This document shows positions 31,778-49,133 of a stretch of 64,000 nt of DNA, piece after piece. Source of the DNA: Candidatus Micrarchaeota archaeon (GTDB lineage: Archaea > Micrarchaeota > Micrarchaeia > Anstonellales > Bilamarchaeaceae); contig JBFMCO010000022.1 in assembly GCA_040754495.1 (NCBI GenBank), positions 18,233-82,232 of the forward strand, in the 5' to 3' direction. The notes beneath the pieces are model-generated. The model was not told the DNA's origin and did no database searches. It saw only the letters and a program-made list of their open reading frames with translations. Numbering within the stretch: position 1 is the first letter of the stretch; the number at the start of each line of letters is the position of its first letter. The translations under genes were made by a program, and so were the position numbers.

Positions 31778-34700
31778 TCACAGGAAATCGGACAGCCCCA
31801 TCTGCTTGACCTTGTCGTCCTCGAATATGCTCTTTATCTCCCGCTCGACAAGCACCAGCCTCTGCTTCAGGTAGGAGGGAAGGTCGTAGCGGTCGCATAT
31901 GTCGCGGGATATCTCCAGGTATTTCTCGATTCCGCCCTTGTTGATTGTGAGGAGGAGGTTGCCCCCGCAGCGCGCGCACTTGCCCGCCAAGGGCACCCTG
32001 CGGAAGATGGTGTTGCACGAGACGCAGCGGAAGGTCTGCCTTGAGAAGGAGCGCAGGTTGCCGTAGAGGTCCGGGATGAAATGGCTCAGTATCAGGCGCT
32101 CGGCTGCATCGCGCCTATCAACCGGGCGGAGGCGGCCCTGGAGCCTGAACTGTATGTCTATCTTGTCCGGTATGGACTGCAGCTCCACGTAAGCCGTCCG
32201 TATGTTCCCGACATCAAGCGTGCCGCCCGGATGCGTGATGGGAAGCTCGTACTGCTCGTCGGTCCCCAGGACGTCCTTCACGGTCTTGAGCTTCACCTCG
32301 CCCGGCGGCGCGAAGCGCTCCGCGGCCTCGTAGAACTCGAGGGGGTAGCGCGAGACGATTTCGATGCAGTGCGCCTCGTCGTCCACCTCCTTGGGGTTTA
32401 TCTCTATGGAGAGCACGAGGGGCGCGTCCATGGTGCCCCCGCGCTTCTCGTCGAGGAACCTGCGGGAGAAGTTGATGAGGGCGTCCATCAGGAGCATCAC
32501 GCAGTCCTCGTCGCCGTCGCACCGAATCGTAAAGACCTGGTTGTTCAGAAGAACATTCTTTTCTTCCAGGGATTGGCCTTCCACATCGAGGCAGTATGCC
32601 GGAACTCCGTCTGTGAATTTCTCAATCGACCTGACCTTATCGAAAATATAGTCGCTTTGAGGCACGACCGTGAACAGCTTATTCTGGTATTTGATAAATC
32701 GCGCATCGCTCGACAGACCGTTTCTTCTCAGTTCGGACATTCGTTCTGCCTTATGCTTCACAGAGGGCGCGCAGATATTTGCAAAGGCATATAGGTCGGT
32801 GCCATAAAGACTAATGAATCTCTGCGAAAGCAAACGCGGGGTTTTTCCGAGCTCTTTATACCTTTCAAGGACCTTTTTGCCAGGCAAACGCGGTTTGGTT
32901 TTGCCATACCTGCAGAAGATTCCAAATCGCAAAAGCAGCGTGCCGAAATCCTCCAAAAGATTTTGTGAAACGGAGTAGAAGTGCATTCTCGGGGGGGTGG
33001 CGATTACACTTCCATCTCCGTCAAAATAAGCAGAAATAAAGGATTTGACAAGACGGTCAGGCAGTGAAAAGACGAGATTTGGAACCCGTTTCGTGTAGGC
33101 ATTTGAGCCGGTCTTCAAGACTTTATCAAACAGAAGGTGGATTATCCGGCTGCACATTGTTATCTGAGTGCCGTTCTCGCCAAGATAAGGGTTCGTCATA
33201 AAAACGCTTTTGATGGCGGCAATAAGCCGGTTCTGCATTATTTTATTGCAAACCCTGAAGCTGACCTGATAACACGAAGGGCTTCTCCGTGCATACCCCT
33301 CTGAGACGAAGTAGCCGAGAATGAGCATCAGGTCCTCATCTATTGGAATTCTTACCGGCAGCCCCAGGTTATCTCTCTTCATGGCAATTTTTGCATCCAT
33401 GGGCAAATCCTCAAAATTGCACACCCCCTCTTCCACAAGGATTTCGAAATGGGAGAGTGGAACGCGTCCATACCACCTGCTCGGAGTCCGTCTCTCGATT
33501 TTGTTGAGCGGCAGGATTCTGAGCAGCAAATCGCGATGATTATAGAATATTTTCTTGAAAAAATCCTTCGAGCGAAGTATTATCGCTTCTTTTTCTTCCT
33601 TTTTTAGTGGAGATAGGGCCTTTGCAAGATTGAGCACGCGGGAGTCGTCTATCGTGTGCGGATTGAATTTTATGCAAACTGGCAGATCGGAGCCTTCAGT
33701 CATATCTTTTGCCTGAACTGCGCTAAGCGCCCCTTTGTTGAGGCAAAGAATATTATGGTCGGGAGTCACGGTAATCTCCCGGTGGGTGGTTGTCGTAAGC
33801 TTAATCCATTTATCGGGAGCCTTTGCTCTGATGAAGCATTTGATTTTTTTACGGATTGTTTTGTGGGATTGGAGGTCTATTCCGAATGAGTAAAGAGTTC
33901 CGGGAACTTCCACTTTTTCTGTATAAGCATCAAGCCGCTTGACCCTGTCGGGGTATTTGGCAAACATTTCTTCGGTAACATCGCCCAGTGCCCTTTTGAT
34001 ATATTTTTTCTCGTGCTCATCAAATATGATAATCTCGGTTGCCGGATGGAAGCAGTTCCTTCTCTTCGCCGTGTGGAAATACGGGTGGCCGTAGCCGACG
34101 TTGGCCTTGTTGAAGCCCACGATGCGGCACAGGACGCCGGCGCTCGTGTGCGGCGAGAGCCCGACTGCCAGGTGGCCTATCAGGTCGTCCTTCGACTTCA
34201 CGTTGTAGAAGGGCTTCATGCCGTAGAGGTTGATTAGCATGTCGTCGATGAAATCCGCCACACGCATGAAGTACGCGGCGCCGTTCTCGGAGAGGACGAT
34301 GTCCTGGTGCCGCAGCGCCAGCGTCTGGGAGCCGCTCTCGAGGGGCTTGCCAAGATAATCCACGGCATAACCGAGCGCCCTGGCCCTATCGAGGCTTATG
34401 CCCACCTCGTCCGGCGTGAAATGCGTGAGCGGGATGTCTGTCGCGTCGAAGCGGGAGGTGCCGTCCCTGAAAACGTAGACGTCGTGCTTTGCGCGGAGGA
34501 AGCCCTTCTCCAGCCGCTCCGGGATGCGGATGGTGTTCGAGAGGCCCTTCACCCCCTTCACGTCTTCCGGGGAGCTCCCCACCCGGTCCTTCACGCGCTC
34601 GAAGAGCTCCATTATGTCTACGGGCCTGCGGTCGTAGGAGAGCGTCTTCATCTCGCAGTGGATTTCGTACTCGCAGATGCGGCCGCACTTCTGGCATATC

Positions 34701-36658
34701 CGCTCCTCGGCGGCCCTGCCGCCGCAGACGTCGCAGCGCCGGTAATAGCCGAGGCGGCGGCATTTTTCGCATCGCAGCCTGGCGAGCTCCAGGTTGATCG
34801 TCTTCTCGCCCTCGGCACCCCTGAGGGCACGGTGGACCTTGCTCAGGCTCCGGTTCTTGAACGAGCCGGTCGGGAAGAGGACGTGCGGCGAGCCGTCCAT
34901 CTTCCTTTCCTTTGCCTTCTCCGGCCTGCCCATGCGCGCTCCTATATAAGTAGGAGCCTTGGCCTTGATGCGTATCTGGGAGGCCGCGTTCACGATTTCG
35001 AGCGCGCCCTTTGCGGCATCGTATGCCGCTTCGAAGCGGGAGAGGTCTATGCGGCCATCCGAAAGCGCCCCCAGCGAAGAGAGGAGCGCGTACGCGTCGT
35101 CGCCGTCAAGGATGACATTCCCGTCGTGCACCCTGTGCTCCGCGAGGAGCTCCTCCAGGGCCCTTTTCGCAGGCGATGGCGGAAGGACGAGCGAGCGGAG
35201 CCTGCCATCGTGCATCTCCAGCTTCCCGCCCTTGAGCCAGTCCGCCAGGGATTTGAGCTGGTCCGGCGACAGGTCGTGCCAGTGGAATGTGTAGCGCGGA
35301 TGTAGAGGCACGCCATGCGTCCGCGAGAATGCAAAAAGCCCCGGCGCGTCCATGGCGGCAGGAGGCTGGACTCCCTTGGATTCGAGCTCGCGCTCCCACC
35401 ACTCTTCGCAGTAGCCGGATGGCATGAGGGGGTGGTTGGACTTGTGGAAATCGCCGTACGTGCAGAGCAGGTCGCCCAGGAAAAGGATTTCTTCCACCTC
35501 GTCCTTGATGCCGTACGACTCCTCCAGCGTCCGCACCTTCATCACGCGCCCGCTTTTGAGCTTCACGACCGGCGGCTCGAGCCCCTCGTGCGCCGCGACC
35601 ACGCAGCCCTTCCCGGGGCGCTCTATCTTCATGTGAGTCCCGTAGGCCAGGAAGTTGTCGAGCAGTATCATCGTGGCAGGATGGACGTCCTTGCCCATGA
35701 GGCAGGTGGTCTTGCTCCTGCCGTAGCGCAACCGGAACCCGCCCTTGGCCGAAGGGTGGCTGAAGACCGGCCTCCCCGCTACAAGCCCTTCCATGTAGGT
35801 CCAGTCCGGCTTCACCTCGACCTTGTCCGCCTTTTTCTTTATCTTGATGATTTTCTCGAGCCAGTCCCAGCCCAGCTTGAGCTTCTTGGCGTATTTGAGG
35901 AGCTTGGCGGCCTTCGCTGCCACGCCCTCGCACATGACGAGGGGCACGCCGCCGCGCACGCGGTCCGTCTCCACTCCCGGCACCCCGCGGTAGGTCGAGA
36001 CCTCGATTTCCTCGGTCGGGTCGCCGTCTATGCAGACCGGGCAGTTGGATGCTATCACGCGCACGTCGTCCTCCGGCGGCATGTACTGGAGGTGGGTTAC
36101 GCGCGTCTCGTATGTCGTTACCTCCTCGTAGTATCTTGCAATCTGGGAGTCCGTGGCGCGGTAGTCCCCCACGCTGCATACGCGGCGCGCGATGTCGGCA
36201 AGCACCAGGCTGAGGGCGGCCGCAGTGCCTCCTGCGCTCCGGATGGGGCCCGCATAATAGACCGCCACGTAGTCGCTCCCGTCCGGGTTGCGCTTTATCC
36301 TCACTTTCGCTATGCCCTCGGTCGGGGCGACCAGGACGCCCTCGGTGAGTATGCCGAGGCCCGTCCTCACCGCCTGTTCGATGAGAAGCTCCTTGGACGC
36401 CTTCATCAGCTCGCCGCCGGCGATTTTGCGTGCGATTTCGAACGCGATGTCCTCGCGGCCCATGCCACCTTTTTCCATGTCCCGGATGAGATCTGCCACT
36501 CCGGGGGGGCCGACGATACCCTCCACGCGGGCGGCGATGTCCTTGGCTATCTTGACTTCTATGTCGTCGCTCGGGTCATAGCCGAGCCTCCTTGCCTCTG
36601 AGGCGACGGCGTATGCCTTCTGCAGCCCCTCGCGGAGCGTCTCCACATACTCTCCCAT
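31778..36658 (-). CDS. polC: DNA polymerase II (PolD) large subunit DP2, interrupted by an intein
   Basis: N-terminus MGEYVETLREGL..GPIRSAGGTAAALS. KRRN|C..|CDGDEDCVMLLMDALINFS flanks an approximately 511-aa insertion. 1,626 aa in total, about 1,115 aa without the insertion. Confidence 0.9.
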   Translation of the reverse strand: MGEYVETLREGLQKAYAVASEARRLGYDPSDDIEVKIAKDIAARVEGIVGPPGVADLIRDMEKGGMGREDIAFEIARKIAGGELMKASKELLIEQAVRTGLGILTEGVLVAPTEGIAKVRIKRNPDGSDYVAVYYAGPIRSAGGTAAALSLVLADIARRVCSVGDYRATDSQIARYYEEVTTYETRVTHLQYMPPEDDVRVIASNCPVCIDGDPTEEIEVSTYRGVPGVETDRVRGGVPLVMCEGVAAKAAKLLKYAKKLKLGWDWLEKIIKIKKKADKVEVKPDWTYMEGLVAGRPVFSHPSAKGGFRLRYGRSKTTCLMGKDVHPATMILLDNFLAYGTHMKIERPGKGCVVAAHEGLEPPVVKLKSGRVMKVRTLEESYGIKDEVEEILFLGDLLCTYGDFHKSNHPLMPSGYCEEWWERELESKGVQPPAAMDAPGLFAFSRTHGVPLHPRYTFHWHDLSPDQLKSLADWLKGGKLEMHDGRLRSLVLPPSPAKRALEELLAEHRVHDGNVILDGDDAYALLSSLGALSDGRIDLSRFEAAYDAAKGALEIVNAASQIRIKAKAPTYIGARMGRPEKAKERKMDGSPHVLFPTGSFKNRSLSKVHRALRGAEGEKTINLELARLRCEKCRRLGYYRRCDVCGGRAAEERICQKCGRICEYEIHCEMKTLSYDRRPVDIMELFERVKDRVGSSPEDVKGVKGLSNTIRIPERLEKGFLRAKHDVYVFRDGTSRFDATDIPLTHFTPDEVGISLDRARALGYAVDYLGKPLESGSQTLALRHQDIVLSENGAAYFMRVADFIDDMLINLYGMKPFYNVKSKDDLIGHLAVGLSPHTSAGVLCRIVGFNKANVGYGHPYFHTAKRRNCFHPATEIIIFDEHEKKYIKRALGDVTEEMFAKYPDRVKRLDAYTEKVEVPGTLYSFGIDLQSHKTIRKKIKCFIRAKAPDKWIKLTTTTHREITVTPDHNILCLNKGALSAVQAKDMTEGSDLPVCIKFNPHTIDDSRVLNLAKALSPLKKEEKEAIILRSKDFFKKIFYNHRDLLLRILPLNKIERRTPSRWYGRVPLSHFEILVEEGVCNFEDLPMDAKIAMKRDNLGLPVRIPIDEDLMLILGYFVSEGYARRSPSCYQVSFRVCNKIMQNRLIAAIKSVFMTNPYLGENGTQITMCSRIIHLLFDKVLKTGSNAYTKRVPNLVFSLPDRLVKSFISAYFDGDGSVIATPPRMHFYSVSQNLLEDFGTLLLRFGIFCRYGKTKPRLPGKKVLERYKELGKTPRLLSQRFISLYGTDLYAFANICAPSVKHKAERMSELRRNGLSSDARFIKYQNKLFTVVPQSDYIFDKVRSIEKFTDGVPAYCLDVEGQSLEEKNVLLNNQVFTIRCDGDEDCVMLLMDALINFSRRFLDEKRGGTMDAPLVLSIEINPKEVDDEAHCIEIVSRYPLEFYEAAERFAPPGEVKLKTVKDVLGTDEQYELPITHPGGTLDVGNIRTAYVELQSIPDKIDIQFRLQGRLRPVDRRDAAERLILSHFIPDLYGNLRSFSRQTFRCVSCNTIFRRVPLAGKCARCGGNLLLTINKGGIEKYLEISRDICDRYDLPSYLKQRLVLVEREIKSIFEDDKVKQMGLSDFL
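32522..34054 (-). mobile_element. Intein in PolD DP2 with an embedded LAGLIDADG homing-endonuclease domain
   Basis: Starts CFHPATEIIIFD directly after KRRN. Contains ILGYFVSEGYARR and ISAYFDGDGSV. Ends ..VLLNNQVFTIR before CDGDED. The lower-GC island at about 32700-34050 matches. The C-terminal junction is uncertain because there is no terminal HN. Confidence 0.7.
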
Positions 36659-37996: not shown

Positions 37997-38165
37997 GGGC
38001 TCGTAGCTCAGCATCTTGAGGGAAAAGCGCCTAACAATGGGTTTTGGCCCAGCTTTTCCCAAAAGCTGGAAGCAGAGCACTCGCCTTGCAGTTTCCTCGA
38101 AACCGGAAACGGGAAACAGGAGACCGGAACGCGAGGGGCCGGGGGTGCGAGTCCCCCCGAGTCCA
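37997..38165 (+). tRNA. tRNA-Ala(UGC)-like with two introns (D-loop and canonical 37/38) and an atypical T-loop (UGCGAGU)
   Basis: Acceptor GGGCUCG/CGAGUCC with discriminator A. GCUCAGC|about 56-nt intron|UGGAAGCAGAGC. Anticodon stem CUCGC/GCGAG, loop CUUGCA|about 39-nt intron|C. T-stem GGGGG/CCCCC. Confidence 0.55.
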
Positions 38166-38235: not shown

Positions 38236-38937
38236 ATGAAGCTTGTTCACGAGCAGGACCGCAAGAAGGACGAGGACAAGGGCATCCCGAAGGGGAAGGC
38301 GCCGCTTCTCGAGGAGATAGGCGGCACCGGGGGATTTTCCAGGAAGGGCTTTGTTCTGGCGGCAGCCGCTGCAGCCATTATCGCGGGCAAGTCCGGCTGC
38401 ACTTACGAAATCGGCGGCGTGCCCGTCCCTGAAGAGGAGGACGGGGGCAACGATGCCGGAGGGGCGGATGCCGATGTAGACGGAGGCGAGGTCACCGACG
38501 GCGGGCATGACGAGGACGCGGGCATGGACGGCGGTCCGGACGCGGATGTCGACGGCGGAGAGACGGATGGCGGCGTCACGGACGGCGGAGAGACCGACGG
38601 TGGCGTAGAAGACGGCGGGACCGATGGCGGCGCTGATGCCGGCGGCCCGCTCTGCGCGGGAGTATACAACGAAGTTGTCGTCAACGGACCTTTCGACAGG
38701 AACGTTGATACGGAAGTCGGCGGGTACTACTTCAGATACCTGTCCTACACGACGACCACGGTCACGATGGACATCCGCTGCGGCTCGGACAGCTCGTTGG
38801 TCGAGGCCGCCCATGTGTTCACTGTCGGCGTGGAGGGCACGATAAACGTCCCTGCCGACAGCAAGAGGATACGCGTCACCGTGAACAGCAAGAACACGTT
38901 CACCGCGAACTGCGATGTAACGGTGGAGAACCTGTAG
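38236..38937 (+). CDS. Predicted lipoprotein, GDT-repeat family member 1: signal anchor plus lipobox, Gly/Asp/Thr-rich linker and a conserved ~95-aa C-terminal domain
   Basis: IIAGKSGC lipobox-like. DGGETDGGVTDGG repeats. C-terminus GPLCAGVYNE..IRCGSDSS..VPADSKRIRVTVNSKNTFTANCDVTVENL. The start was trimmed from 38044, which overlaps tRNA-Ala. Confidence 0.65.
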   Translation: MKLVHEQDRKKDEDKGIPKGKAPLLEEIGGTGGFSRKGFVLAAAAAAIIAGKSGCTYEIGGVPVPEEEDGGNDAGGADADVDGGEVTDGGHDEDAGMDGGPDADVDGGETDGGVTDGGETDGGVEDGGTDGGADAGGPLCAGVYNEVVVNGPFDRNVDTEVGGYYFRYLSYTTTTVTMDIRCGSDSSLVEAAHVFTVGVEGTINVPADSKRIRVTVNSKNTFTANCDVTVENL

Positions 38938-38946
38938 GGTGATTTA

Positions 38947-39540
38947 TTGAGATTGCAGCCCCGGAATGAGGAACACAAGGAAGAAAAGAAGGAAGGATTC
39001 GCGAGAGAGCCCCTTCTCGAGAGGGCAGGGAAGAAGGCGGGAATAGCCCTCCTCGCAGCCGGACTTGCCGCAGGCTGCACGTATCAGAGCAGCAGCCTCC
39101 CCAGTGGTGATGGCGGAACTGACGCCCACCAGGATGCCGGCATGGACGGCGGCGCCGATGCAGGACCGGACCTCGATGCGGGACCGGATTCCGGTCTTCC
39201 GGATGCGGGAACGGATGCAGGTTTCGATGCCGGCACGGACGGCGGAGGGCCGCTGTGCGTAGGCGTCTTCAACGAGGCAGTGGTCAATGGGGCCTTCGAC
39301 AAGAACGTGCCGAGGGCCGTGGGCGGATACAGCTTCAATTACACGGCTTACACCACGAGCACAATCACCATGGACATCCGCTGCGGCTCGGACAGCTCGG
39401 GCGTAGCGCTCGGCCAGGTCTTCACTGTCGGAGTCGAGGCCGTAATAGACGTCCCTGCCGACAGCAAGAGGATACGCGTCACCGTGAACAGCAAGAACAC
39501 GTTCACCGCGAACTGCGATGTGACCGTGGAAAACCTCTAG
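38947..39540 (+). CDS. Predicted lipoprotein, family member 2
   Basis: LAAGLAAGC lipobox. D/G/A-rich linker. Its C-terminal domain is near-identical to member 1, and the last ~90 nt are almost identical. Confidence 0.65.
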   Translation: MRLQPRNEEHKEEKKEGFAREPLLERAGKKAGIALLAAGLAAGCTYQSSSLPSGDGGTDAHQDAGMDGGADAGPDLDAGPDSGLPDAGTDAGFDAGTDGGGPLCVGVFNEAVVNGAFDKNVPRAVGGYSFNYTAYTTSTITMDIRCGSDSSGVALGQVFTVGVEAVIDVPADSKRIRVTVNSKNTFTANCDVTVENL

Positions 39541-39650
39541 CCTACCCTTATCCCTTTATTCTTATCGCTCCATGCTTCTTATGCGGTCATGATGAGAAGA
39601 GGTATTCCTGAATGATGATGGGACGTCAGAGCTGAACCGCACAGATTTCC

Positions 39651-40175
39651 ATGGAGAAGAAGGCAGAGGGGATTGTAGAGATCGTTTCGGCAGCAGCCAT
39701 CGCCGGAGCTGTCCTTTATTTCTCGAGCGACATATCGGCCCTCGGCTCCTATGGGTATGCCGGGGCATTCCTCATAGCGATGCTCAGTTCGGCCACGATA
39801 ATATTCCCTGCGCCAGGCTGGGCTGCGGTGGTGGCCCTCAGCGGCACCCTGGACCCCCTTCTTCTTGGCATAGTGGTGGGGGCGGGCTCCGCCATCGGCG
39901 AGATTACGGGCTACCTTGCCGGCGACGGCGTGCGGGACATCATGAACAGCCGGCTGAAGGAGGCCAGGAAGTTCGAGGATTTCGTGAAAAAATACGGAAT
40001 CATGGCGATAGCCGTGCTAGCGTTCATACCCAACCCCCTATTCGACATAGCCGGGATTATAGCAGGCGGGCTGAGGATACCGTGGTGGAAGTACCTACTC
40101 TCATGCGCTGCAGGCCGGATAATCAGGTATGTGCTCCTTGCTTACATCGGGGCGTTCACGATAGGCCTGCTCTAG
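39651..40175 (+). CDS. DedA / SNARE-associated (VTT-domain) membrane protein
   Basis: FLIAMLSSATIIFPAPGWAAVVALSG..LYFSS, typical DedA organisation. Confidence 0.7.
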   Translation: MEKKAEGIVEIVSAAAIAGAVLYFSSDISALGSYGYAGAFLIAMLSSATIIFPAPGWAAVVALSGTLDPLLLGIVVGAGSAIGEITGYLAGDGVRDIMNSRLKEARKFEDFVKKYGIMAIAVLAFIPNPLFDIAGIIAGGLRIPWWKYLLSCAAGRIIRYVLLAYIGAFTIGLL

Positions 40176-40295
40176 CCTGATGGGAACGTATATAAAGAGG
40201 GAAAAACATAATTATCTGCTTAAAAAAGGGACAAAGTTCGCAAGAAATCTGTTTCTGCGGCCCTTTTTGATACAAAATTACAGGGAGGTGGGGAG

Positions 40296-40751
40296 ATGAA
40301 GATGGGGGCAATAGACCTGGATATCCTGCGGGAGCTGCGCGAGAACTCAGACAGGCCGGTGCGGGAGCTTGCCAAGAAGATGGGATTGCACCCGAACACC
40401 CTGCTGCAGCACATAAGGAAGATGGAGAGCAGCGGCATCATCGTGAAGTATACGGCAGAGATAGACTACACCAAGCTCGGCTACGACCTGCAGGCTCTTG
40501 TGATGATAAAGGTCGGCAAGGAGGTCCGGAGCGACTGGAAGGTTCTCGATGAGCTGCGCGCGTTCAAGGACGTCTCGGCGCTCTATGCGATAACCGGGGG
40601 CTACGACCTTTGCGCCATCGTGAAGACGAAGAACAGGGAAACGCTCGCAAACCTGCTCTCCGAGATAAACAAGAGGCCGTACGTGGTCGAGACGAACACG
40701 ACGCTCATGCTCCACGCTTTCAAGCACGCGTACGAGTTCAACCCGCTCTGA
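40296..40751 (+). CDS. Lrp/AsnC-family transcriptional regulator
   Basis: DLDILRELRENSDRPVRELAKKMGLHPNTLLQHIRKMESSGII followed by a RAM domain. Confidence 0.8.
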   Translation: MKMGAIDLDILRELRENSDRPVRELAKKMGLHPNTLLQHIRKMESSGIIVKYTAEIDYTKLGYDLQALVMIKVGKEVRSDWKVLDELRAFKDVSALYAITGGYDLCAIVKTKNRETLANLLSEINKRPYVVETNTTLMLHAFKHAYEFNPL

Positions 40752-40754
40752 GGC

Positions 40755-41690
40755 TCAGTCCTTGTGGAATACCATGCCATACATGTCATGGTATTCGTCT
40801 ATCCTCTTCCGCATCAGCGTGGCAGGCACATAGTGGAATCCGGTGAGCTGGAAGATGGAGCTGATTTCAGGAATCTGGAGGACGGTGACGGCGATGCGTA
40901 TAAGCCTGGCCAGCTTCTGGACTTCATTGTCATCCGGATGGAGGTCCGTCCTGACGACAAGGGGCGACTCCTCGATGGAAATGAGCCTGCCTCCAGGGGG
41001 GAGCGTGTTGAAAAGCATGCTGGCGACGTTGCATTTCTCATCCGAGCCCCTGATCCAGTGCATGACGTAAGACAGGATGGCGGTCCTTACTTCCCCGCCG
41101 TCCTCCACCTCGCGGAGGTCCTTTGCGTCCCTGCACTCGAAGCGGACACGCAAGAGCTCCAGCTCCCGCACCATCAGCTGCATTTTCCGCCCGTCGTCGG
41201 AGTCAACGATGTGGAGCGATGCGGGGTGGATGCCCGGGGATACGAAAGGCATGGACTCGATGAGCCTCTGCATCGCATTCCTCACGTTGGCCCGTGCCAG
41301 GCCGAGCATCACTTCCGACATGTCCAGCAGTATGAACTTGAGGGGGAGCTTCGGCACCTGGAGCAGGCTGTCCTGTGTGGAGAGGACTTCTGCGGACATG
41401 CTCACCATGAGGTTAGCGGAAAGGACGCCGGTGCCGCATCCCAGTTCCGCAATCGGGCCGGCCGAATGCCCTTCGGCGACATAGTTCCTGAGAATCTCGA
41501 GCGCAATCGGGTGGTGGCTTTCGCGCATCCATTCATCGTAGCGCGGCGCGAACCTTTCCGTAGCCCGGAGCACGGTTGCCAGGGTCGGCGGTTTCATGAG
41601 ACGGGCGTCCGGCGAGCGGCTTATGATAAGCGGCATCGGCCTTCCTGAAGCCATAGAATTGCCGCCTGCGTCCCCTCCCATTATACCCAC
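40755..41690 (-). CDS. Class I SAM-dependent methyltransferase
   Basis: ELGCGTGVLS motif I. Confidence 0.6.
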   Translation of the reverse strand: MGIMGGDAGGNSMASGRPMPLIISRSPDARLMKPPTLATVLRATERFAPRYDEWMRESHHPIALEILRNYVAEGHSAGPIAELGCGTGVLSANLMVSMSAEVLSTQDSLLQVPKLPLKFILLDMSEVMLGLARANVRNAMQRLIESMPFVSPGIHPASLHIVDSDDGRKMQLMVRELELLRVRFECRDAKDLREVEDGGEVRTAILSYVMHWIRGSDEKCNVASMLFNTLPPGGRLISIEESPLVVRTDLHPDDNEVQKLARLIRIAVTVLQIPEISSIFQLTGFHYVPATLMRKRIDEYHDMYGMVFHKD

Positions 41691-41730
41691 AGGGATATAT
41701 GTTCTACCATTTATTTAAAAAGGCTTCCGC

Positions 41731-42687
41731 TCAGGAGGGTTTCTTGAAGCAGAGGCAGCGCATCTCGCCCCAGTAATCCGGAGGCAGGCCCGGGCCGCGG
41801 AGCACCTCGGCCAGGCGGACCACTTCCACCCGCGTCTCGGCCGCGGCCTGCATGTCGGTCTCGGCCACCCGGGCTATCCACTTGTCCCTCACCCAGCCGG
41901 AAACATCCTCGCTCATGTCGAGCGGGCGGCTTATGAATGCCAGGAGCTTGGCGCCTTCGGAGCCGACGACGCCGTAGGGAAGGGGCAGCCATGGGTAGAC
42001 GTCCATAATTATGAACCGCCCGCCGTCCCTCAGGAGGTCGAACGCATTCGTCATCACGGCCCCCCTGCTCGCCAGCGTCTGGAAAGAGCCCCACCAGAGG
42101 ACTATGTCGAACATGGCCGGCTTCACCACCGGGCTTTCCCGGACGAGGCCCTCCATGGAGAGGTCGATTGACGCCATCGTGACGGCCTTCCCGTCCGGCC
42201 TGATGAACTCCGCCAGGTTCGACCTCGCTATTAGGTTCAGCTCGGGCGACACCTCGTTGGCGAATACGCGCAGGCCCGAGTTAGCGGTGTGGAGGAGATA
42301 GCGCGACACCATCCCGGTGCCGCAGGTGGCATCAAGGATGAGTTTCGCGTGGTTGATGTCAGGCACGAGGGACCGGAGCTTCATCCAGTTGACCGCGATA
42401 GCGGTATACTGGCCCGTCAAATCCATGAAGACGTCGAGGGAGCTCCCGCCGCCCTCGTGCGGGCGGGCCAGATACCCGCCCGTGGTAACCCGGACGGCCC
42501 CGAAGCCTCTTTCGCGCAGGACTTCATCTTCGTGCTGGCTTCCGTTTCCGAAAAGCGCGGGTGATTCTTCCACAAGCGGGGCAGCGCCGCCGCCTGCGCG
42601 GCGCAGGCCGGAGATGGGGACGCTCCGCTCGCCCTGGACTACGAACACGCGCTGGGGCTTCCTGAAACGTTCCGGCATATCACCCAC
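41731..42687 (-). CDS. Class I SAM-dependent methyltransferase, adjacent to the previous one
   Basis: LDATCGTGMVS motif I. Confidence 0.6.
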   Translation of the reverse strand: MGDMPERFRKPQRVFVVQGERSVPISGLRRAGGGAAPLVEESPALFGNGSQHEDEVLRERGFGAVRVTTGGYLARPHEGGGSSLDVFMDLTGQYTAIAVNWMKLRSLVPDINHAKLILDATCGTGMVSRYLLHTANSGLRVFANEVSPELNLIARSNLAEFIRPDGKAVTMASIDLSMEGLVRESPVVKPAMFDIVLWWGSFQTLASRGAVMTNAFDLLRDGGRFIIMDVYPWLPLPYGVVGSEGAKLLAFISRPLDMSEDVSGWVRDKWIARVAETDMQAAAETRVEVVRLAEVLRGPGLPPDYWGEMRCLCFKKPS

Positions 42688-42816
42688 TCGGGACTTTATT
42701 AGACTGGAAAGGTATTTAAGTTATTATATATGTCGCGTCTTGGATAATAACGCGTTGCACCCGGAAAACAGAACTCGGGCCCGGGGCACTGAACCGGAAA
42801 CCGGCTGCCGGGGGCT

Positions 42817-42853
42817 GGATGCAGGAAAAAAATAGCGGGGGGTAGATTTGAAC
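42817..42853. repeat. 37-bp direct repeat, copy 1: a partial duplicate of the initiator-tRNA 3' end plus its oligo-T flank
   Basis: ggatgcaggaaaaaaatagcggggggtagatttgaac is identical to 42960..42996. Confidence 0.8.
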
Positions 42854-42959
42854 CCCCAGCCTTTTTATAATCGGAATCCTGGCCCCGGAGAAAAAGGCTA
42901 GGGTTAACCCAAAAACCAGTTTCTCGGAACCCTGAACCCGAAACGGGAAACCGGAAACA

Positions 42960-42996
42960 GGATGCAGGAAAAAAATAGCGGGGGGTAGATTTGAAC
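42960..42996. repeat. 37-bp direct repeat, copy 2; it overlaps the 3' end of the initiator tRNA gene
   Basis: Identical 37-mer. Sequence after the repeat differs between the copies. Confidence 0.8.
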
Positions 42997-43080
42997 TACC
43001 GGTCCCTGGGTTATGAGCCCAGTGGGAACTCCAAGCTTCCCATAGGGCAAATTCTAGATGTTAGAATTTGTTACCCCGCT
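42976..43080 (-). tRNA. Initiator tRNA-Met(CAU) with a ~30-nt intron near the D-arm
   Basis: Minus strand: AGCGGGG..CCCCGCU-A gives an A1:U72 pair. Anticodon stem CUGGG/CCCAG has three G:C pairs next to the loop CUCAUAA. T-arm GGUAG-UUCAAAU-CUACC. AGCGGGG and CCCGCUA match archaeal tRNAi. 105 nt versus about 75 mature. Followed by TTTTTTT. Confidence 0.65.
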
Positions 43081-43221
43081 TTGCTTGGAGCACTTTAACC
43101 CAGATTGTCCTAACAGAAGTCAGAACGAGAATAATTAGCGGGCTAATGCTTTATAATGGTGATTGAAATTCAGGCGCTAGATGAAGTAAAAGAGAAAGAA
43201 GGAGAAAAGGGAGGAAGAAAC

Positions 43222-43791
43222 TCACTTCCTCTTTTTCGCCGGCGCGACGGGCCGCGGCGGAGGCTCCTCCTCTTCCACCGGCTCCTCTTCGGACATCCCG
43301 GCCTCTTCCTCCGCAGGCTCTTCCTCCTGCGGCTCCTCTTCCTCAGGCTCGGGCCTCCTCGCTGCGGGCCTCGGGGACGGGGCTGCCATCCTCTGCGGCG
43401 GCGGGGCCTTCTCGGTCTCCATCTTCTTCACGATTTTGTGGACCATCTCGCGCTCCATCTGCTCGCTCTTGCGCGAGTCGTCCTCGAGCTTGCCCTTGTG
43501 GTAGTAGAAGCCGGCCATGAACATGAGGCCCGAGATTACCAGCGGGACCAGCAGGGAACCGAGGTAGAGCGACGGCAGTATGACTGTCGCGAACTCGTTC
43601 TTCAGCTTCGCGAACTCGGATGGAGGAGTGACGCCGCACTGCTGCAGCTTGGTGAAATCGTTCGTGGTGACGAAATCGACTACTGCTCCGATTATTCCGC
43701 TTGCATACGATATTATCACATAGGCCGCGCCCACGATGACCAGGAGGCCCAGCACTACAAACAGATAGCTTACAACCTTGAATTTACTCAT
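43222..43791 (-). CDS. Membrane protein with an acidic, Pro/Glu-rich C-terminal tail; hypothetical
   Basis: Two or three TM helices, then PEPEEEEPQEEEPAEEEAGMSEEEPVEEEEPPP. Confidence 0.55.
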   Translation of the reverse strand: MSKFKVVSYLFVVLGLLVIVGAAYVIISYASGIIGAVVDFVTTNDFTKLQQCGVTPPSEFAKLKNEFATVILPSLYLGSLLVPLVISGLMFMAGFYYHKGKLEDDSRKSEQMEREMVHKIVKKMETEKAPPPQRMAAPSPRPAARRPEPEEEEPQEEEPAEEEAGMSEEEPVEEEEPPPRPVAPAKKRK

Positions 43792-43812
43792 ATTTACACC
43801 CCCTCGATTATA

Positions 43813-44586
43813 TTAGGATAAAGTAAAATAAATCCTCCTGTTGTCCTTCCCCTTGTTGTCGAGACGGAGTATGGCTATCCTGCCTACCTCCGCAAGGCTC
43901 CGCACGTGAGTCCCGCCGTCCGCCTGGACGTCTATGCCGGGAATCTCGACGATGCGAAGCTCGCTTATGGATGGCGGCAAAGCGCCTGCAAGCTTCACGA
44001 CGCCAGGTATCTTCATCGCTTCCGCGCGCGGAAGAGTATAGACCTTGAGCGCTGCGCCGCTTGAGAGCGCGTCGTTCGCCTTCCGGACGATTTCCTCGAA
44101 TTGCGGGCGGTCGAACGAAGCGAGGCTGAAGTCGAAGCGCGCCTTGTCCTCCTCGAGCTGATTTCCCGTAATCAGCACGCCGAGCTCCTTGTACATGGCA
44201 GCTCCGAGCACGTGCGCTGCCGTGTGCATGCGCATGAGCTTGTAGCGCCGCTCCCAGTCTATCACGCAGCGGACATGGTCGCCGGCCCCGAGTTTCCAGT
44301 TCCCGGTTTCGTCTTTGGGTTCAGCGTCCAGAAGGTGGACGATTTGGCCGTCTTTCTTGAATACGTCCACGACACTGAACACGGAACCGGGAGCGGGCGG
44401 CCCTGCGCCGGAGACCGGCTGCCCGCTGCCGGAAACCAGCGCGATGCTGCCCCGGTCGGCAGGCTGGCCGCCGCCCCTCGGATAGAACACGGTCCTGTCG
44501 AGGACGACCTCCTTGCCGCTCACCGACAGGACCTGCGCGGCGCACTCGCGCATGTAGCTGTCATCGAGATAAAGGGCCTGGCTCAT
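43813..44586 (-). CDS. alaX: AlaX-type misacylated tRNA(Ala) editing deacylase
   Basis: HTAAHVLGAAM (HxxxH) and DGGTHVRSL (CxxxH-type zinc motif variant). AlaRS editing-domain homolog of about 250 aa. Confidence 0.75.
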   Translation of the reverse strand: MSQALYLDDSYMRECAAQVLSVSGKEVVLDRTVFYPRGGGQPADRGSIALVSGSGQPVSGAGPPAPGSVFSVVDVFKKDGQIVHLLDAEPKDETGNWKLGAGDHVRCVIDWERRYKLMRMHTAAHVLGAAMYKELGVLITGNQLEEDKARFDFSLASFDRPQFEEIVRKANDALSSGAALKVYTLPRAEAMKIPGVVKLAGALPPSISELRIVEIPGIDVQADGGTHVRSLAEVGRIAILRLDNKGKDNRRIYFTLS

Positions 44587-44640
44587 AAAGCTTTTAAATG
44601 CAGGAAAACATTAATAGGTTGGGATTAGGAGCTGATTGTC

Positions 44641-45150
44641 ATGGCAGGAAGGGACACGAGGCCGAAAGAGGAGATTCTGGAGACGCACGCCCAGACGGGC
44701 GAGGCGCAGAGGCAGCAGCAGGAGGCTGCGCAGAGGCAGGTCGGGGGGATAGACCTCTCGAGGCTGGTCGCCGCAAAGCAGCAGGTCCGCGGAGCTGTGA
44801 CCGAGCAGTCTGCGCACGCGTACCAGGTTGCCTCCACGACAAGAAGGGTGTTCATGGAGGAGGTCGAGCGCAGCAGGGACATCACCCTGAGGGGCAACGT
44901 CCGCGATTCCGAGATGATGAGGATAGCCGCCAACCCGGAAGCCTTCGAGAACTGCAAGGTCCAATACGGATACAACCAGAGGCAGAGGATATACAGCGTC
45001 GCAACCGAGTTCGACGGCAGGCCGAGAATCCTCACGGTGCGCGTCGGGGAGAACTTCATGGAGATGTCGCTCGCAGACAGGCAGGGCACCGTCCTCGAGA
45101 CCATGAGGCAGGAAGACGGAAGGGGCATAACATACAGCAGGGCAGGCTGA
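44641..45150 (+). CDS. Hypothetical protein (169 aa)
   Basis: ORF with a Gln/Arg-rich N-terminus. No motif recognised. Confidence 0.45.
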   Translation: MAGRDTRPKEEILETHAQTGEAQRQQQEAAQRQVGGIDLSRLVAAKQQVRGAVTEQSAHAYQVASTTRRVFMEEVERSRDITLRGNVRDSEMMRIAANPEAFENCKVQYGYNQRQRIYSVATEFDGRPRILTVRVGENFMEMSLADRQGTVLETMRQEDGRGITYSRAG

Positions 45151-45152
45151 TT

Positions 45153-45806
45153 ATGAGCCAGGCGAAAATTAACGCCGCAAGAGCAGCGCTCGGATACGTG
45201 AAGGACGGCATGTGCATAGGCCTTGGCAGCGGCACGACAGTCCGGGAGTTCATAAGGCTGCTCGGGGAAAAGGTCCGCGGCGGCCTGAAGGTGAGCTGCG
45301 TGACGACATCGTTCGATTCGCGCATGCTGGCAATCGAGTGCGGCATATTCGTGACCGAGACGGACGCCATCGACGAGATAGACCTCACGGTGGACGGGGC
45401 CGACAAGGTCACGAAGACCGCCCTCCTCAAGGGAGGCGGGGGGGCGCTGACAAGGGAGAAGATAATCGGCTACAACGCGAAAAGATTCATAATCATTGCA
45501 GACGAGGGCAAGGTCCAGGAGGGGACGCTGGAAGGCGAGGTAAATCTCGAGGTGCTCCCTTTCGCGGCCCCGCTTGTCATGCGAGCGCTCAAGAGATACA
45601 ACCCCAGGATACGGATGGCGAAAGCCAAGCTGGGGCCGGTGATAAGCGACAACGGGAGCTTCATAATAGACTGCGAGATGAAGCTCGACGACCCGAGGAA
45701 GACGGAGCAGTGGCTAAAGAGCATCCCGGGCATAGTCGAGAACGGAATCTTCACGAGATTCGACGTCATAATAGTCGGCAGCGAGAAGGGCCACAGGGTC
45801 CTCTGA
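45153..45806 (+). CDS. rpiA: Ribose-5-phosphate isomerase A
   Basis: MSQAKINAARAALGYVKDGMCIGLGSGTTV..DGADKV..GGGGALTREK. The long upstream in-frame extension from 44598 was judged spurious. Confidence 0.85.
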   Translation: MSQAKINAARAALGYVKDGMCIGLGSGTTVREFIRLLGEKVRGGLKVSCVTTSFDSRMLAIECGIFVTETDAIDEIDLTVDGADKVTKTALLKGGGGALTREKIIGYNAKRFIIIADEGKVQEGTLEGEVNLEVLPFAAPLVMRALKRYNPRIRMAKAKLGPVISDNGSFIIDCEMKLDDPRKTEQWLKSIPGIVENGIFTRFDVIIVGSEKGHRVL

Positions 45807-46045
45807 TTAACGGCTTATAAAAATCCAGAAGAATGGCTTTCCGCTGTTGGCACGGGGGAACCGTCCGCAGACGGTGGGTCCTGTGCCCAAAGGGCGTCCT
45901 GGGGTCAAGAATCAGACTAGCCCGGCATGGCGCCTAAGGTTTTCTACAGAGCCGATTTTACGCTATTCGTTTTGGGATTTCGGAATTTATGACAAAGAAA
46001 TATACTTTTAAACACATCTGCACAGAAGAGAGGTAGGTGTTTTTC

Positions 46046-46747
46046 ATGACTATTGAGAGGATGAAATCCCAGAGGGGGGCTAACGAGGCGAGGAATGCGA
46101 GGGTCGCGAAGGTTGCGGCAACGGTTCTGCTCATAGAGGGGCTTGCGTCCATATGCGCTGCCCAGGGCTGCAGCGACCCGTTCACGTCTTCGGGAATAAA
46201 GACCGAAACCGATTCCGGCACAGGCGGGCATGGAGGCACTTCCGGCTCCGGGGGCAGCAGCGGCATGGCCGGCTCGGGCGGGCTCGCGGGAACAGGAGGC
46301 GAGGCCCAGGGCGGCAGCGGCGGCGTTGGCGGAACCGGCGGAGCCGCAGGCATGGGGGGAAGCGGCGGCTTTGCCGGAGCGGGAGGCCAGGGGGGCGTAG
46401 CAGGGCAGGGAGGAGCGGGCGGCATGGCTGGCGCAGGAGGCGCCGGCGGAGCGGGCCCTCTGTGTGCCGGGGTTTATAACGAGTTCGTGGACCACGGGAC
46501 GTTCCCGAAGAACACGCCAACCGAAGCCGGAGGCTACTACCTCAACTACCTGTCCTACACTGCCACCACGATAACCATGAATATCCTGTGCGCCTCGGAC
46601 AATTCAGCCGTCGCGAGCGGCGAGGTTTTCACGGAGAACGTCGAGAAGACCGTCAACGTCCCGGCCGATGGCAAGAAAATCAGGGTGACGCTGCATAACA
46701 TGAACACTTTCCAGGCCGTTTGCAGCGTGACCGTAGAGCCCCTCTGA
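46046..46747 (+). CDS. Predicted lipoprotein, family member 3 (Gly-rich linker variant)
   Basis: LASICAAQGC. A long GGxGG linker. C-terminal domain GPLCAGVYNEFVDHG..ILCASDNS..VPADGKKIRVTLHNMNTFQAVCSVTVEPL. Confidence 0.6.
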   Translation: MTIERMKSQRGANEARNARVAKVAATVLLIEGLASICAAQGCSDPFTSSGIKTETDSGTGGHGGTSGSGGSSGMAGSGGLAGTGGEAQGGSGGVGGTGGAAGMGGSGGFAGAGGQGGVAGQGGAGGMAGAGGAGGAGPLCAGVYNEFVDHGTFPKNTPTEAGGYYLNYLSYTATTITMNILCASDNSAVASGEVFTENVEKTVNVPADGKKIRVTLHNMNTFQAVCSVTVEPL

Positions 46748-46866
46748 AAGCCGCTCCGGCGGCTTTCCTTTTTCAGCTTTTTTTCATCCGTTGTTTTGGC
46801 TAATGTTTAAAAATGCTAGCCATTAAATCACAAACAGACAAAAATCTTAACAAAAGGTGGGAGAGG

Positions 46867-47850
46867 ATGGGCAGACTACACAGCAAGCAGGAAGCGGACG
46901 CAGCGCCGCACGGGGGAAGGACTGTTTCTGAGAAAAGAAGGGCTCTTTCGAAATGGCTGATAGGGGCCTCGGTGGCCGCTTCCGCCGCTCTTGCAGCCGC
47001 ATCGTGCAGCGAGAGGAACGAGAATCTGTACATCCCGATTCCGCCGAGCGGAAACACGACGGATGGCGGAACCACGAACGATGGCGGGCCGGAAACAGAC
47101 GGGGGGCAGACGAGCGACGGCGGCACTACCGACGGCGGATGCGTTTCGCCTGCGCCGGTCTGCAACTCGCAGTACGTCTACGGCCTGCTCAATGTAGGCG
47201 AGATGCTGCTGATAGGGGATTACCGGGTGAGGCTGGCCGACACGAACGAAGCCGGCGGGGAGCAGAGGGCAGTTGTCGAGGTCCTCGACTCCTGCAACAG
47301 CGTGATAACCAGCCAGCCGGTCAACGAGAACGACACGGTCGTCTTCCAGGTCATGGGGACAGATATCGAAATCGAGGTCGCGGTTACGCATGTAACCGTT
47401 TCGGCGCCGAAATCCGCACGCATCACTGCCGAGATGACCTGCACTGACGGCGGGGTCACGGATGGAGGAGTGACGGACGGAGGCAATACCGACGGCGGCC
47501 CGGCTGACGCAGGCCCTGACGTTGATGGCGGCGCGGCCGATGGCGGAAGCGACGGCGGCCCATCCTGCACCGGCGTGTACAACGAGTCTGTCGATAACGG
47601 AGAGTTCGACAGGAACGTGGACGTCGAGGTCGGCGGCTACCATTTCAGGTACCTTTCCTACACGACCACCAGCGTCACCATTGACATCAGGTGCGGCGCG
47701 AGCAGCGCGGACGTGGCCCTCGGCGAGACGTGCGGGACCGGCGTCGAGAGGGTGATAGACGTCCCCGCAGACGGCAAGAGGATACGCGTCACCCTTGAGA
47801 ACAAGAACACGTTCCGCGCCATAATGGACGTAACGGTCGAGGACCTCTGA
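46867..47850 (+). CDS. Predicted lipoprotein, family member 4, with an extra N-terminal ~100-aa domain
   Basis: AAASC lipobox. N-terminal domain CVSPAPVCNSQYVYGLLNVGEMLLIGDYRVRLADTNEAGGEQRAVVEVLDSCN.. matches member 5. DGG repeats. C-terminal domain ..VPADGKRIRVTLENKNTFRAIMDVTVEDL. An AT-rich TATA-like tract lies at 46800-46815, and GGTGGGAG sits before the ATG. Confidence 0.6.
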   Translation: MGRLHSKQEADAAPHGGRTVSEKRRALSKWLIGASVAASAALAAASCSERNENLYIPIPPSGNTTDGGTTNDGGPETDGGQTSDGGTTDGGCVSPAPVCNSQYVYGLLNVGEMLLIGDYRVRLADTNEAGGEQRAVVEVLDSCNSVITSQPVNENDTVVFQVMGTDIEIEVAVTHVTVSAPKSARITAEMTCTDGGVTDGGVTDGGNTDGGPADAGPDVDGGAADGGSDGGPSCTGVYNESVDNGEFDRNVDVEVGGYHFRYLSYTTTSVTIDIRCGASSADVALGETCGTGVERVIDVPADGKRIRVTLENKNTFRAIMDVTVEDL

Positions 47851-47855
47851 GGGGG

Positions 47856-49133
47856 ATGCACATGGACAATCTCAAATTGCGCAGGGGAAGCGTCGATGAG
47901 AAAGAGGGGAGGGAGGACGCGAAGCCGAAGGAGAAATGGGGCAAGTGGCTTCTTGGAAGCGGAGCGGTCACATCCGTGGCTGCGGCTGCAATCATCGCAA
48001 TCTCGTGCGGCGACTCAAACACGGACCATTACATACCGATCCCGCCTAACGGCAATGTCGACGGCGGGACTACGGAGGACGGAGGCCCGGTCACGGACGG
48101 CGGGGACGAGGACGGCGGGGTTACCGATGGAGGGGATGGGGGGACCTGCACGCCGCCAACGCCATCTTGCGCCACCCAGACGGTCAACGTTCTCATGAAC
48201 GTAGGCGAGCAGCTTGTCGTCGGCGATTACAGGATAAGGCTGGCAGACACGAACGAAGCCGACGGGGAGCAGAGGGCCGTTATCGAGGTCCTGGATTCCT
48301 GCAACCAGCTCATCCGCTCCGAGCCTATTAACGAGGACGGCAGCAAGGTCTTCCAGGTGATGGGCACCGATATAGAGATAGAAGTCAGCGTCACGAACGT
48401 AACGATAACCGGCGCGAAGTCTGCCAGGGTAAGCGCGGAGATGAGATGCACAACCGGCACCGACGGAGGCCCGGTCACGGATGGCGGCCCGGAGACGGAT
48501 GGAGGGCCGACCGAGACTGACGGAGGGCCTGCCGATGCAGGCCCGGACGTCGATGGCGGAGAGACCGATGGCGGGCCTGTTACGGACGGCGGGACCGAAG
48601 AGGACGGTGGCGCCACGGATGGAGGCCCCACTGACGGCGGGCCGGACGTGGACGGCGGGCCTGTCGAGGAGGACGGCGGAGTTAGCGACGGCGGCCCCAC
48701 GGATGCCGGCCCTGACGTCGATGGCGGCGCGGCCGAAGACGGCGGCGTAACCGATGCCGGGCCCGATGTGGACGGCGGGGCTGACGCCGACGCTGGCGTG
48801 ACCGACGGAGGCGCGGATGCCGACGGCGGCACTGTAATCGTCTGCAGCGGCCTGTACAACGAGCACGTTGACAACGGCGAGTTCCCGAGGAACGAGGACG
48901 TGGAGCTGGGCGGATACTACTTCAGGTATGTCTCCTACACGCCAAACACGGCCACGGTCGAAATATACTGCTCGGCCGACAGCTCTCTTGTCAGCGGCGG
49001 GATGACGCTCACGCAGGGGCACGAGGAGACCCTCGAGCTTCCTACAGACGGGAAGCGCATCCGGTTCTTCCTCGAGAACAAGAATACGTTCAGGGCCATA
49101 ATCGACGTAAACGTCGAGGACCTCCCACCCTGA
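47856..49133 (+). CDS. Predicted lipoprotein, family member 5 (the longest; same two-domain layout as member 4)
   Basis: AISC lipobox. CTPPTPSCATQTVNVLMNVGEQLVVGDYRIRLADTNEADGEQRAVIEVLDSCN.. An extensive D/G/T/P linker. C-terminal domain ..GKRIRFFLENKNTFRAIIDVNVEDLPP. Confidence 0.6.
   Translation: MHMDNLKLRRGSVDEKEGREDAKPKEKWGKWLLGSGAVTSVAAAAIIAISCGDSNTDHYIPIPPNGNVDGGTTEDGGPVTDGGDEDGGVTDGGDGGTCTPPTPSCATQTVNVLMNVGEQLVVGDYRIRLADTNEADGEQRAVIEVLDSCNQLIRSEPINEDGSKVFQVMGTDIEIEVSVTNVTITGAKSARVSAEMRCTTGTDGGPVTDGGPETDGGPTETDGGPADAGPDVDGGETDGGPVTDGGTEEDGGATDGGPTDGGPDVDGGPVEEDGGVSDGGPTDAGPDVDGGAAEDGGVTDAGPDVDGGADADAGVTDGGADADGGTVIVCSGLYNEHVDNGEFPRNEDVELGGYYFRYVSYTPNTATVEIYCSADSSLVSGGMTLTQGHEETLELPTDGKRIRFFLENKNTFRAIIDVNVEDLPP

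Follow-up and report, generated by a model that had tools for sequence, protein, structure and literature searches.

DPANN archaea need contact with the surfaces of their hosts, and almost none of their envelope proteins have been characterised. How the surface layer (S-layer) of Micrarchaeota is held to the cell membrane is likewise an open question. In the Sulfolobales, the S-layer partner SlaB combines a C-terminal anchor with a coiled-coil stalk. The S-layer protein described in Micrarchaeota contains a DUF1608-like domain and has no known anchor, and its authors suggested that a second, stalk-forming protein exists (bioRxiv 10.1101/2021.04.28.441871). In addition, lipoproteins have been predicted to be prevalent in DPANN, where the lipidation enzyme AliA was found “with some gaps” (Hong et al. 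2025, PMC12462473). Herein we describe a protein family that may address the question of S-layer attachment, starting from five paralogous genes (M1–M5, all on the + strand) in a 64-kb stretch of the Candidatus Micrarchaeota archaeon contig JBFMCO010000022.1 (the whole stretch is hereafter called the window). Neither the domain that defines the family nor the protein architecture has been described before; in these proteins of Micrarchaeota, one or two globular domains (“heads”) are carried on a low-complexity stalk behind a signal-like N-terminus with an invariant Cys. We consider it somewhat more likely than not (roughly 55%) that these are small secreted envelope proteins, attached to the membrane by their N-termini and bearing the head on a disordered stalk, with the S-layer as the favoured partner.

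Five paralogous genes with a common C-terminal head

An earlier note on this DNA, made from the sequence alone, had proposed a family of five lipoproteins, and all five open reading frames (ORFs) are indeed present on the + strand in the ORF list. M1 (38236..38937, 233 amino acids (aa)) is delimited by the ORF call and the domain limits, is identical to the public protein P0001, and has its ATG at 38236 inside a longer ORF beginning at 38044. It consists of an N-terminal module (aa 1-55) with the anchor Cys codon at 38398-38400, an acidic DGG stalk (aa 56-135) and the C-terminal domain (C-domain) head at 38641-38934. M2 (38947..39540, 197 aa) starts with TTG 9 nucleotides (nt) downstream of M1, with the anchor Cys codon at 39076-39078, a stalk of 55 aa and the C-domain head at 39244-39537; P0004 is its strain variant. 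M3 (46046..46747, 233 aa), to which P0003 is identical, has a 93-aa Gly-rich GGxGG stalk and its C-domain head at 46451-46744, and its anchor Cys is more likely C42 (AAQG/C, codon 46169-46171) than C37, by analogy with the relatives P0026 and P0046. For M4 (46867..47850, 327 aa), the ORF could begin as early as 46813, but the strain variant P0002 likewise begins MGRLHS. In M4, the anchor Cys codon (47005-47007) is followed by NLYIPIPP, an N-terminal head domain (N-domain) with four Cys (47134-47448), a second stalk of 35 aa and the C-domain head (47554-47847). M5 (47856..49133, 425 aa), which lies 5 nt downstream of M4 and has P0006 as its strain variant, repeats this layout with the anchor Cys codon at 48006-48008, then HYIPIPP, the N-domain head at 48141-48455, a second stalk of 125 aa and the C-domain head at 48831-49124. 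Minus-strand ORFs that overlap M1–M5 are by-products of the GC-rich repeats.

The shared C-terminal domain was recovered by tblastn in the window in exactly five copies (E 1e-25 to 1e-65), with nothing else above noise. Multiple alignment of the five defines a block of ~98 aa with 32 invariant positions and 45-78% pairwise identity, M5 being the most divergent, and the motifs that had been noted in it (GPLCxGVYNE, VGGY, PADxKRIR, NTF and VTVExL) are all there. The five proteins end in ...VTVE(N/P/D)L(PP) straight after the last beta strand, with 0-2 residues beyond it. Its description as a two-Cys domain is correct at the level of the family, where C5 is invariant and C47 is found in >90% of 85 instances, but each of M1–M4 has a third Cys. 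The additional N-terminal domain (~105 aa) of M4 and M5 does occur in exactly two window copies, which share 66% identity; it is, however, not a separate domain but a divergent duplicate of the C-domain (see below). The linkers are as described, with DGG-x-TDGG five-codon repeats in M1, M4 and M5, DAG/DGG in M2 and GGxGG in M3.

Relatives across Micrarchaeota

The earlier statement that the domain matches nothing recognised was borne out by the searches. Neither Pfam nor NCBIfam gave a match above cut-off for the five proteins, no Pfam family recurred among 85 head sequences even at E<=5, and a PDB profile search with the domain reached a best E of 0.49. Likewise, no relatives were returned by word-indexed homologue searches with both domain alignments or by pattern scans of genome, metagenome and viral contigs with the five-sequence alignment, and tblastn against GenBank phages gave no match. 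An exhaustive search of 1.84 billion cluster representatives with a hidden Markov model (HMM) identified 87 matches at E<1e-3 (35 at E<1e-10), of which ~84 were confirmed by iterated HMM, giving ~100 head instances. The family thus extends beyond the five genes of the window to ~84 related public protein clusters. Nearly all relatives are 180-430 aa long with the head at the extreme C-terminus, and ~20 are two-headed. Their architecture is near-universal across the ~84 clusters: a charged N-terminus, then a hydrophobic stretch rich in Ala/Gly that ends in the invariant Cys, then a stalk of low complexity, either acidic or Gly-rich, and finally one head or two. In the relative P0030, the C-terminal head is preceded by two Lcl_C adhesin-type domains and by a short lipoprotein signal of canonical type (LSGC). 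Three others (P0044, P0049 and P0074; L050 819-2552) have two heads but no hydrophobic N-terminus, and some of their copies have no second conserved Cys; these proteins could be located inside the cell or represent some other variety of the fold.

Predicted fold of the heads

An all-beta sandwich had been anticipated for the domain, and structure prediction agrees. AlphaFold2 modelled the M1 head from the 85-sequence alignment with a predicted local distance difference test (pLDDT) of 95.6 and a predicted template modelling score of 0.84, giving eight strands, no helix and the two conserved Cys in an all-beta sandwich. The M4 N-domain (pLDDT 94.5) was predicted with the same eight-strand pattern, and hhalign matched the N-domain and C-domain profiles with 95.4% probability (E 1.7e-8). 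M4 and M5 are therefore two-headed. A disulfide probably clamps each head.

The paired fold-comparison scores were highest for the CcmF periplasmic domain (8.5 and 7.8), followed by Dengue E domain I (7.8 and 7.5), CcsBA (7.5 and 6.8) and the Methanosarcina S-layer DUF1608 domain (7.4 and 7.3), with many class II fusion proteins, including HAP2, EFF-1 and the archaeal Fsx1, lower down. The predicted heads have both the beta-sandwich of a DUF1608 subdomain and the domain I-like eight-stranded beta fold of class II fusogens, and the likeness to these two groups is best read as a fold-level relationship only. That the DUF1608 sandwich resembles viral envelope proteins has been reported previously (PMC5744192).

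The N-terminal module

Using 65 full-length members, we characterised the N-terminal module at the family level. The Cys is invariant (65/65) and closes an uncharged, Ala/Leu/Gly-rich stretch with a median length of 16 aa, with G/S/A at position -1 in 55 of the 65 and G/T/S at +1. The preceding n-region has a median length of 31 aa, is rich in K/R and is net positive (mean 8.9 K+R vs 4.9 D+E), whilst the hydrophobic h-region comprises 29% Ala and 13% Gly. Over 19 residues, the hydropathy of the h-region peaks at a median of 1.51, and in 42 of the 65 members the peak is below 1.6, the usual transmembrane threshold; this low hydropathy fits a cleavable signal better than a stable helix. The charged n-region and hydrophobic h-region of a signal of the signal peptidase II (SPase II) type are thus both present. 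Two classes of N-terminus can be told apart by motifs that, in the window, are found only in the family. Class A (M1, M2 and probably M3) has [KR]xPLxE[RG][IL]xK before the h-region and C-[TS]-[FY]-x3-G-[ILV]-P after it, and class B (M4 and M5) has F-[SG]-K-W-L-L before and C-G-x5-N-Y-[IVY]-P-I-P-P after.

The earlier proposal of surface display is supported to the extent that an extracytoplasmic location is the best inference, given the signal-like hydrophobic stretch with its invariant Cys; the mature isoelectric point (pI) of ~4.05, the conserved Cys and the canonical lipoprotein signal and adhesin-type domains of the relative P0030 count for it as well. Lipidation of the Cys is the most likely mode of anchoring, as suggested by the invariant Cys pattern in the sequences together with the prediction made for DPANN by Hong et al. 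2025.

Two other sorting routes were considered and rejected, and a third was set aside. For a type IV pilin-like class III signal, the [KR]-[GA] motif fits by eye only M1 (RKG/FVLAAA) and a few Ala-rich relatives, and M2, M4 and M5 do not fit. The h-region sequence is moreover unconserved across the family, its conserved element being the Cys that follows it, which speaks against a pilin identity. Anchoring of the PGF-CTERM/archaeosortase kind would call for a C-terminal sorting signal (motif, transmembrane helix and basic tail), which is absent in all five proteins. A twin-arginine translocation signal was also considered, as FSKWLL is positioned like the twin-arginine motif, but paired arginines occur in few members only (e.g. 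P0054 and P0078).

Two further ORFs of the window look secreted or membrane-bound. One, at 61750-63243 (-), encodes 497 aa and is probably another envelope protein, for which Pfam gives no match. A charged n-region of 24 aa (MKFSNRES...) leads into an h-region that looks like a signal but lacks a Cys, and the protein also contains a spacer rich in P/V/Q and a C-terminal half rich in Gly and aromatic residues. Since this secreted-looking ORF has a long n-region too, long n-regions may be a habit of the lineage. The other, at 56851-58029 (+) and 392 aa long, is likewise unmatched in Pfam and combines a short signal peptide of the classical type with a soluble domain of ~240 aa and several C-terminal transmembrane segments.

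Length-variable stalks

The stalks are built from imperfect 15-nt (five-codon) GACGGCGG-type repeats. The acidic residues of the mature proteins number up to 78 (in M5). Most relatives have acidic stalks as well, M3 and several relatives having an uncharged Gly/Ala/Ser stalk instead. Comparison with the strain variants showed that these differ mainly by stalk insertions or deletions (indels). M4 and P0002 are 97% identical bar one 37-aa indel, which is a stalk insertion in P0002, and M5 and P0006 differ by four stalk indels, so that stalk length is polymorphic between strains. N-glycosylation was rejected as a major feature, there being just 0-2 sequons per protein.

Fixed loci and concerted evolution of the heads

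The genes around the family are of a housekeeping kind (Zn-ribbon, CMD, VTT/DedA, Lrp, two methyltransferases, AlaX, RpiA and DUF359). The window is collinear with a metagenome contig of 31.6 kb (L041/L044), on which the order is GT2, CysRS, PolD, CMD, a first pair of family members (P0010 and a 242-aa member), VTT, AlaX, RpiA, a second pair (P0013 and P0024), DUF359, PRC and DUF2085. The family therefore holds two fixed core-genome loci, with four copies there and five here. The order of two members followed by a VTT/DedA gene is found in four lineages (the window, L041, L040 and L047) on contigs whose GC ranges from 0.41 to 0.61. Truncated family members additionally flank polD in four GTDB Micrarchaeota metagenome-assembled genomes (MAGs), and a solitary member occurs in L043.

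Between the window and its collinear relative, the housekeeping neighbours are 60-90% identical and the family members only 40-46%; divergence between genomes is about twofold faster for the heads than for the genes beside them. The five heads of the window, at loci 8 kb apart, are 45-78% identical to one another and 31-56% identical to their positional orthologues, and head pairs are 69% identical in L041 and 86% in L040. A 73-nt identical tract on the + strand, M1 38846..38918 = M2 39449-39521, lies inside the head domains. Third-codon positions are identical at 24/24 sites inside this tract vs 41/74 outside it, and a run as long was seen in 0/20,000 codon shuffles; we read it as a gene-conversion tract. 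The heads of one genome thus undergo concerted evolution, whereas between genomes they change quickly, and their stalks are of variable length. Such concerted evolution suggests that all heads of one cell recognise one fast-evolving partner. Polymorphic stalk length and fast head evolution fit a role in surface interaction, and the stable copy number (4-5) and core synteny argue against contingency-locus antigenic variation.

Other features of the window

The conserved neighbour downstream of the tandem pair encodes a VTT/DedA-like membrane protein (39651..40175, + strand; Pfam PF09335, E 2.8e-15). Its counterparts are at 11546-12073 in L041, 3007-3534 in L040 and 1060-1584 in L047, with gaps of 25-110 nt after the pair. 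This adjacency could reflect functional coupling (e.g. the flipping of lipid carriers for glycosylation or lipidation) or plain synteny. Between the VTT gene and a transfer RNA (tRNA) gene, the segment 40296-42687 encodes an Lrp/AsnC regulator and two class I methyltransferases. Since these genes are absent from the collinear L041, we take the segment for a lineage-specific insertion, adjacent to the duplicated 3' half of the tRNA. The tRNA itself (Rfam, 42984-43041, - strand, 30 bits; missed by ARAGORN), within the region 42782-43050, has a CAT anticodon, and its 5' acceptor arm is followed by an insert. At a distance of 143 nt, the 3' half is present again together with an oligo-T, as a 72-nt direct repeat of 83% identity. 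The arrangement could represent an intron-containing tRNA, a split tRNA or an integration scar.

The PolD large subunit (31778-36658, - strand) has 1626 aa here vs 1126 aa in L041. The ~500 extra residues separate its two conserved blocks and resemble an intein, including a stretch similar to a homing endonuclease. The N-extein shares 72-83% identity with Candidatus Micrarchaeota/Micrarchaeia MAGs and 36-46% with those of other DPANN and Altiarchaeia. A third of the window is taken up by a 6841-aa ORF (1946-22471, + strand) with strong GC and AT skew, a mostly charged, helical sequence and hydrophobic segments near the middle of the protein. Neither half has a Pfam match, and tblastn found the family head domain to be absent from it.

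Discussion

The arrangement of these proteins suggests how they may work. The signal-like segment, with its positive n-region and Ala/Gly-rich h-region, would carry the protein across the membrane, whereupon the invariant Cys would most likely be lipid-modified and become the mature N-terminus, as in lipobox proteins. The acidic or Gly-rich, intrinsically disordered stalk (55-125 aa), whose length the imperfect 15-nt repeats would make easy to change, would then lift one or two eight-stranded beta-sandwich heads, each probably clamped by a disulfide, some nanometres above the membrane. There the heads would serve as binding or docking modules for a single lineage-specific partner, being kept alike within the genome by gene conversion. 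The favoured partner is the cell's own S-layer or pseudoperiplasmic envelope, for which the proteins would act as membrane-to-S-layer tethers of differing reach; the main alternative partner is the surface of the host cell. Three points favour the S-layer: the loci are core and stable; the heads are predicted to have a fold of the DUF1608 class, which has been reported for the S-layer protein of Micrarchaeota; and for this S-layer protein no anchor is known, its discoverers having suggested that a second protein forms the stalk.

Several observations weigh against this explanation. The Cys does end a signal-like stretch, as the earlier idea of a lipobox-like residue after a hydrophobic anchor implied, but the strict bacterial lipobox ([LVI][ASTVI][GAS]C) occurs in none of M1–M5 and in only 9 of the 65 full-length members. 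The looser PROSITE-type core is matched by four of the five and by 39 relatives, yet it also matches ~10% of arbitrary ORFs in the GC-rich window. The positional rule of PROSITE PS51257 places the Cys within about the first 35 residues. In the family its median position is 47, far past that of typical lipoprotein signals, and only 5 of the 39 pattern matches have it at or before position 35. No AliA-like gene was recognised among the ORFs scanned in the 64-kb window, the only part of the genome examined. The relatives P0044, P0049 and P0074 have no hydrophobic N-terminus at all, and the domain is accordingly not strictly extracellular. Regarding the partner, the sequences show no similarity to DUF1608, the DUF1608 structure 3u2h is not among the matches of the PDB profile search, Foldseek against the PDB gave noise only (best E 0.12, template modelling score <=0.35), and five paralogues with different stalks exceed the need of a simple stoichiometric anchor.

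Adhesion to the host surface is a serious alternative, albeit one that we hold only tentatively. The proteins would then be host-contact adhesins or variable surface antigens (the earlier note had raised adhesins and variable antigens), with heads that bind a receptor on a Thermoplasmatales-type host and with stalk and head variation that tunes or diversifies the attachment. Micrarchaeota are host-dependent episymbionts, and both the fast divergence of the heads between genomes and the strain polymorphism of the stalks would suit such a role. The same can be said of the combination of the head with Lcl_C adhesin-type domains in P0030 and of a weak, sub-threshold likeness to the N-termini of Mycoplasma variable lipoproteins. 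However, the genes occupy fixed core-synteny positions in stable copy number and are not cassette or contingency loci, their heads are homogenised rather than diversified within the genome, and stalks of 55-125 aa may fall short of clearing the S-layer. Our doubts are similar about a version in which the same envelope proteins are held by an uncleaved N-terminal signal-anchor helix as type II membrane proteins, the conserved charged tail being a cytoplasmic domain; this is possible, and less likely than anchoring through a processed Cys. Cleaved signals seldom have a long n-region with motifs such as PLxER, FSKWLL and M[RK]L[TH]R, and the position of the Cys beyond residue 35 in most members and the rarity of the strict lipobox point the same way. 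Against this stand the short, Ala/Gly/Ser-rich h-region of low hydropathy and, above all, an invariant Cys at the exact end of the h-region with G/S/A at -1, which lipoprotein processing requires and a plain anchor does not. The Cys-less secreted-looking ORF at 61750-63243 also has a long charged n-region, which might thus be merely customary in the lineage.

The remaining readings are less likely still. That the acidic D/G/T-rich stalk is itself the functional part, forming a polyanionic surface brush for cation binding, hydration or as a charge barrier with the beta-sandwich as a folded cap, is improbable: the low mature pI, the many acidic residues of M5 and the acidic stalks of most relatives are consistent with it, but the uncharged stalk of M3 and several relatives is not, and it is the head that is conserved, predicted with high confidence and duplicated in M4 and M5. 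A more speculative proposal, which we regard as a long shot, is that the heads, as modules resembling domain I, share ancestry with the class II fusogens and with the DUF1608 domain of S-layer proteins, and that they make specific contact with the host membrane or envelope on flexible polyanionic stalks as the first step of DPANN cytoplasmic bridges, the motif-bearing N-terminus being a DPANN-specific sorting or lipidation signal. Least probable of all is that the proteins are relatives of the class II membrane fusogens (fusexins, HAP2 and viral E) which act in host membrane contact or fusion. The fold comparison does place many such proteins among its matches, but the heads score equally well against CcmF and DUF1608 and Foldseek finds nothing. 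Only a domain I-like module is present: domain II with its fusion loop, domain III and a C-terminal stem or transmembrane segment are all missing, the proteins ending at the last strand; membership in the class II fusogens is thus largely refuted.

Returning to the tethered envelope proteins that we favour, the family is conserved in the phylum at fixed positions, has a confidently predicted fold and combines, in modular form, an anchor, an adjustable stalk and a head. These properties make it a concrete, testable candidate, be it as a tether of the envelope or as a module for contact with the host. Since tethered surface proteins and this class of fold are both known, the family is a new variant rather than a new category.

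Comparison with known systems

The N-terminus is closest to that of the archaeal lipobox proteins studied in Haloferax volcanii (AliA/AliB, PMC12462473), which similarly have an N-terminal signal-like segment ending in a conserved Cys after small residues, are predicted to be extracytoplasmic and membrane-tethered, and belong to a class predicted to be common in DPANN. In our family, by contrast, few members have the strict lipobox (9/65), the n-region extends much further (median 31 aa), and motifs precede and directly follow the Cys. The family thereby adds a non-canonical, motif-rich variant to the newly opened field of archaeal lipoprotein signals. The Vlp/Vsp proteins of Mycoplasma are also alike in their lipoprotein-type N-terminus, repeat regions of strain-variable length and tandem paralogues. 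They differ in that the family gives no sign of phase-variable promoters and has a conserved folded head and core synteny, and the NCBIfam models for variable lipoproteins matched M5 only, far below cut-off (23.3 bits vs 160, and 17.3 vs 22).

With the Sulfolobales SlaB stalk proteins (model cited by Gfrerer et al.) the family would share the proposed principle of a membrane-anchored stalk that joins membrane and S-layer. Its anchor is, however, N-terminal and its stalk disordered, and no homology is expected. At the level of the fold, the periplasmic domain of the CcmF/CcsBA haem lyases (PDB 6zmq, 7s9z) sits in a large polytopic membrane enzyme, whereas our proteins have neither haem-handling motifs nor a membrane domain. 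Domain I of the class II fusion proteins (flavivirus E, alphavirus E1, HAP2 and Fsx1) differs in sequence, with 5-16% identity. The DUF1608 protein MA0829 of Methanosarcina acetivorans (PDB 3u2h) is large and lattice-forming, whereas the members of the family, at 20-43 kDa, carry one or two heads on disordered stalks, and thus add a stand-alone member to the fold class common to archaeal S-layer proteins and class II fusion proteins.

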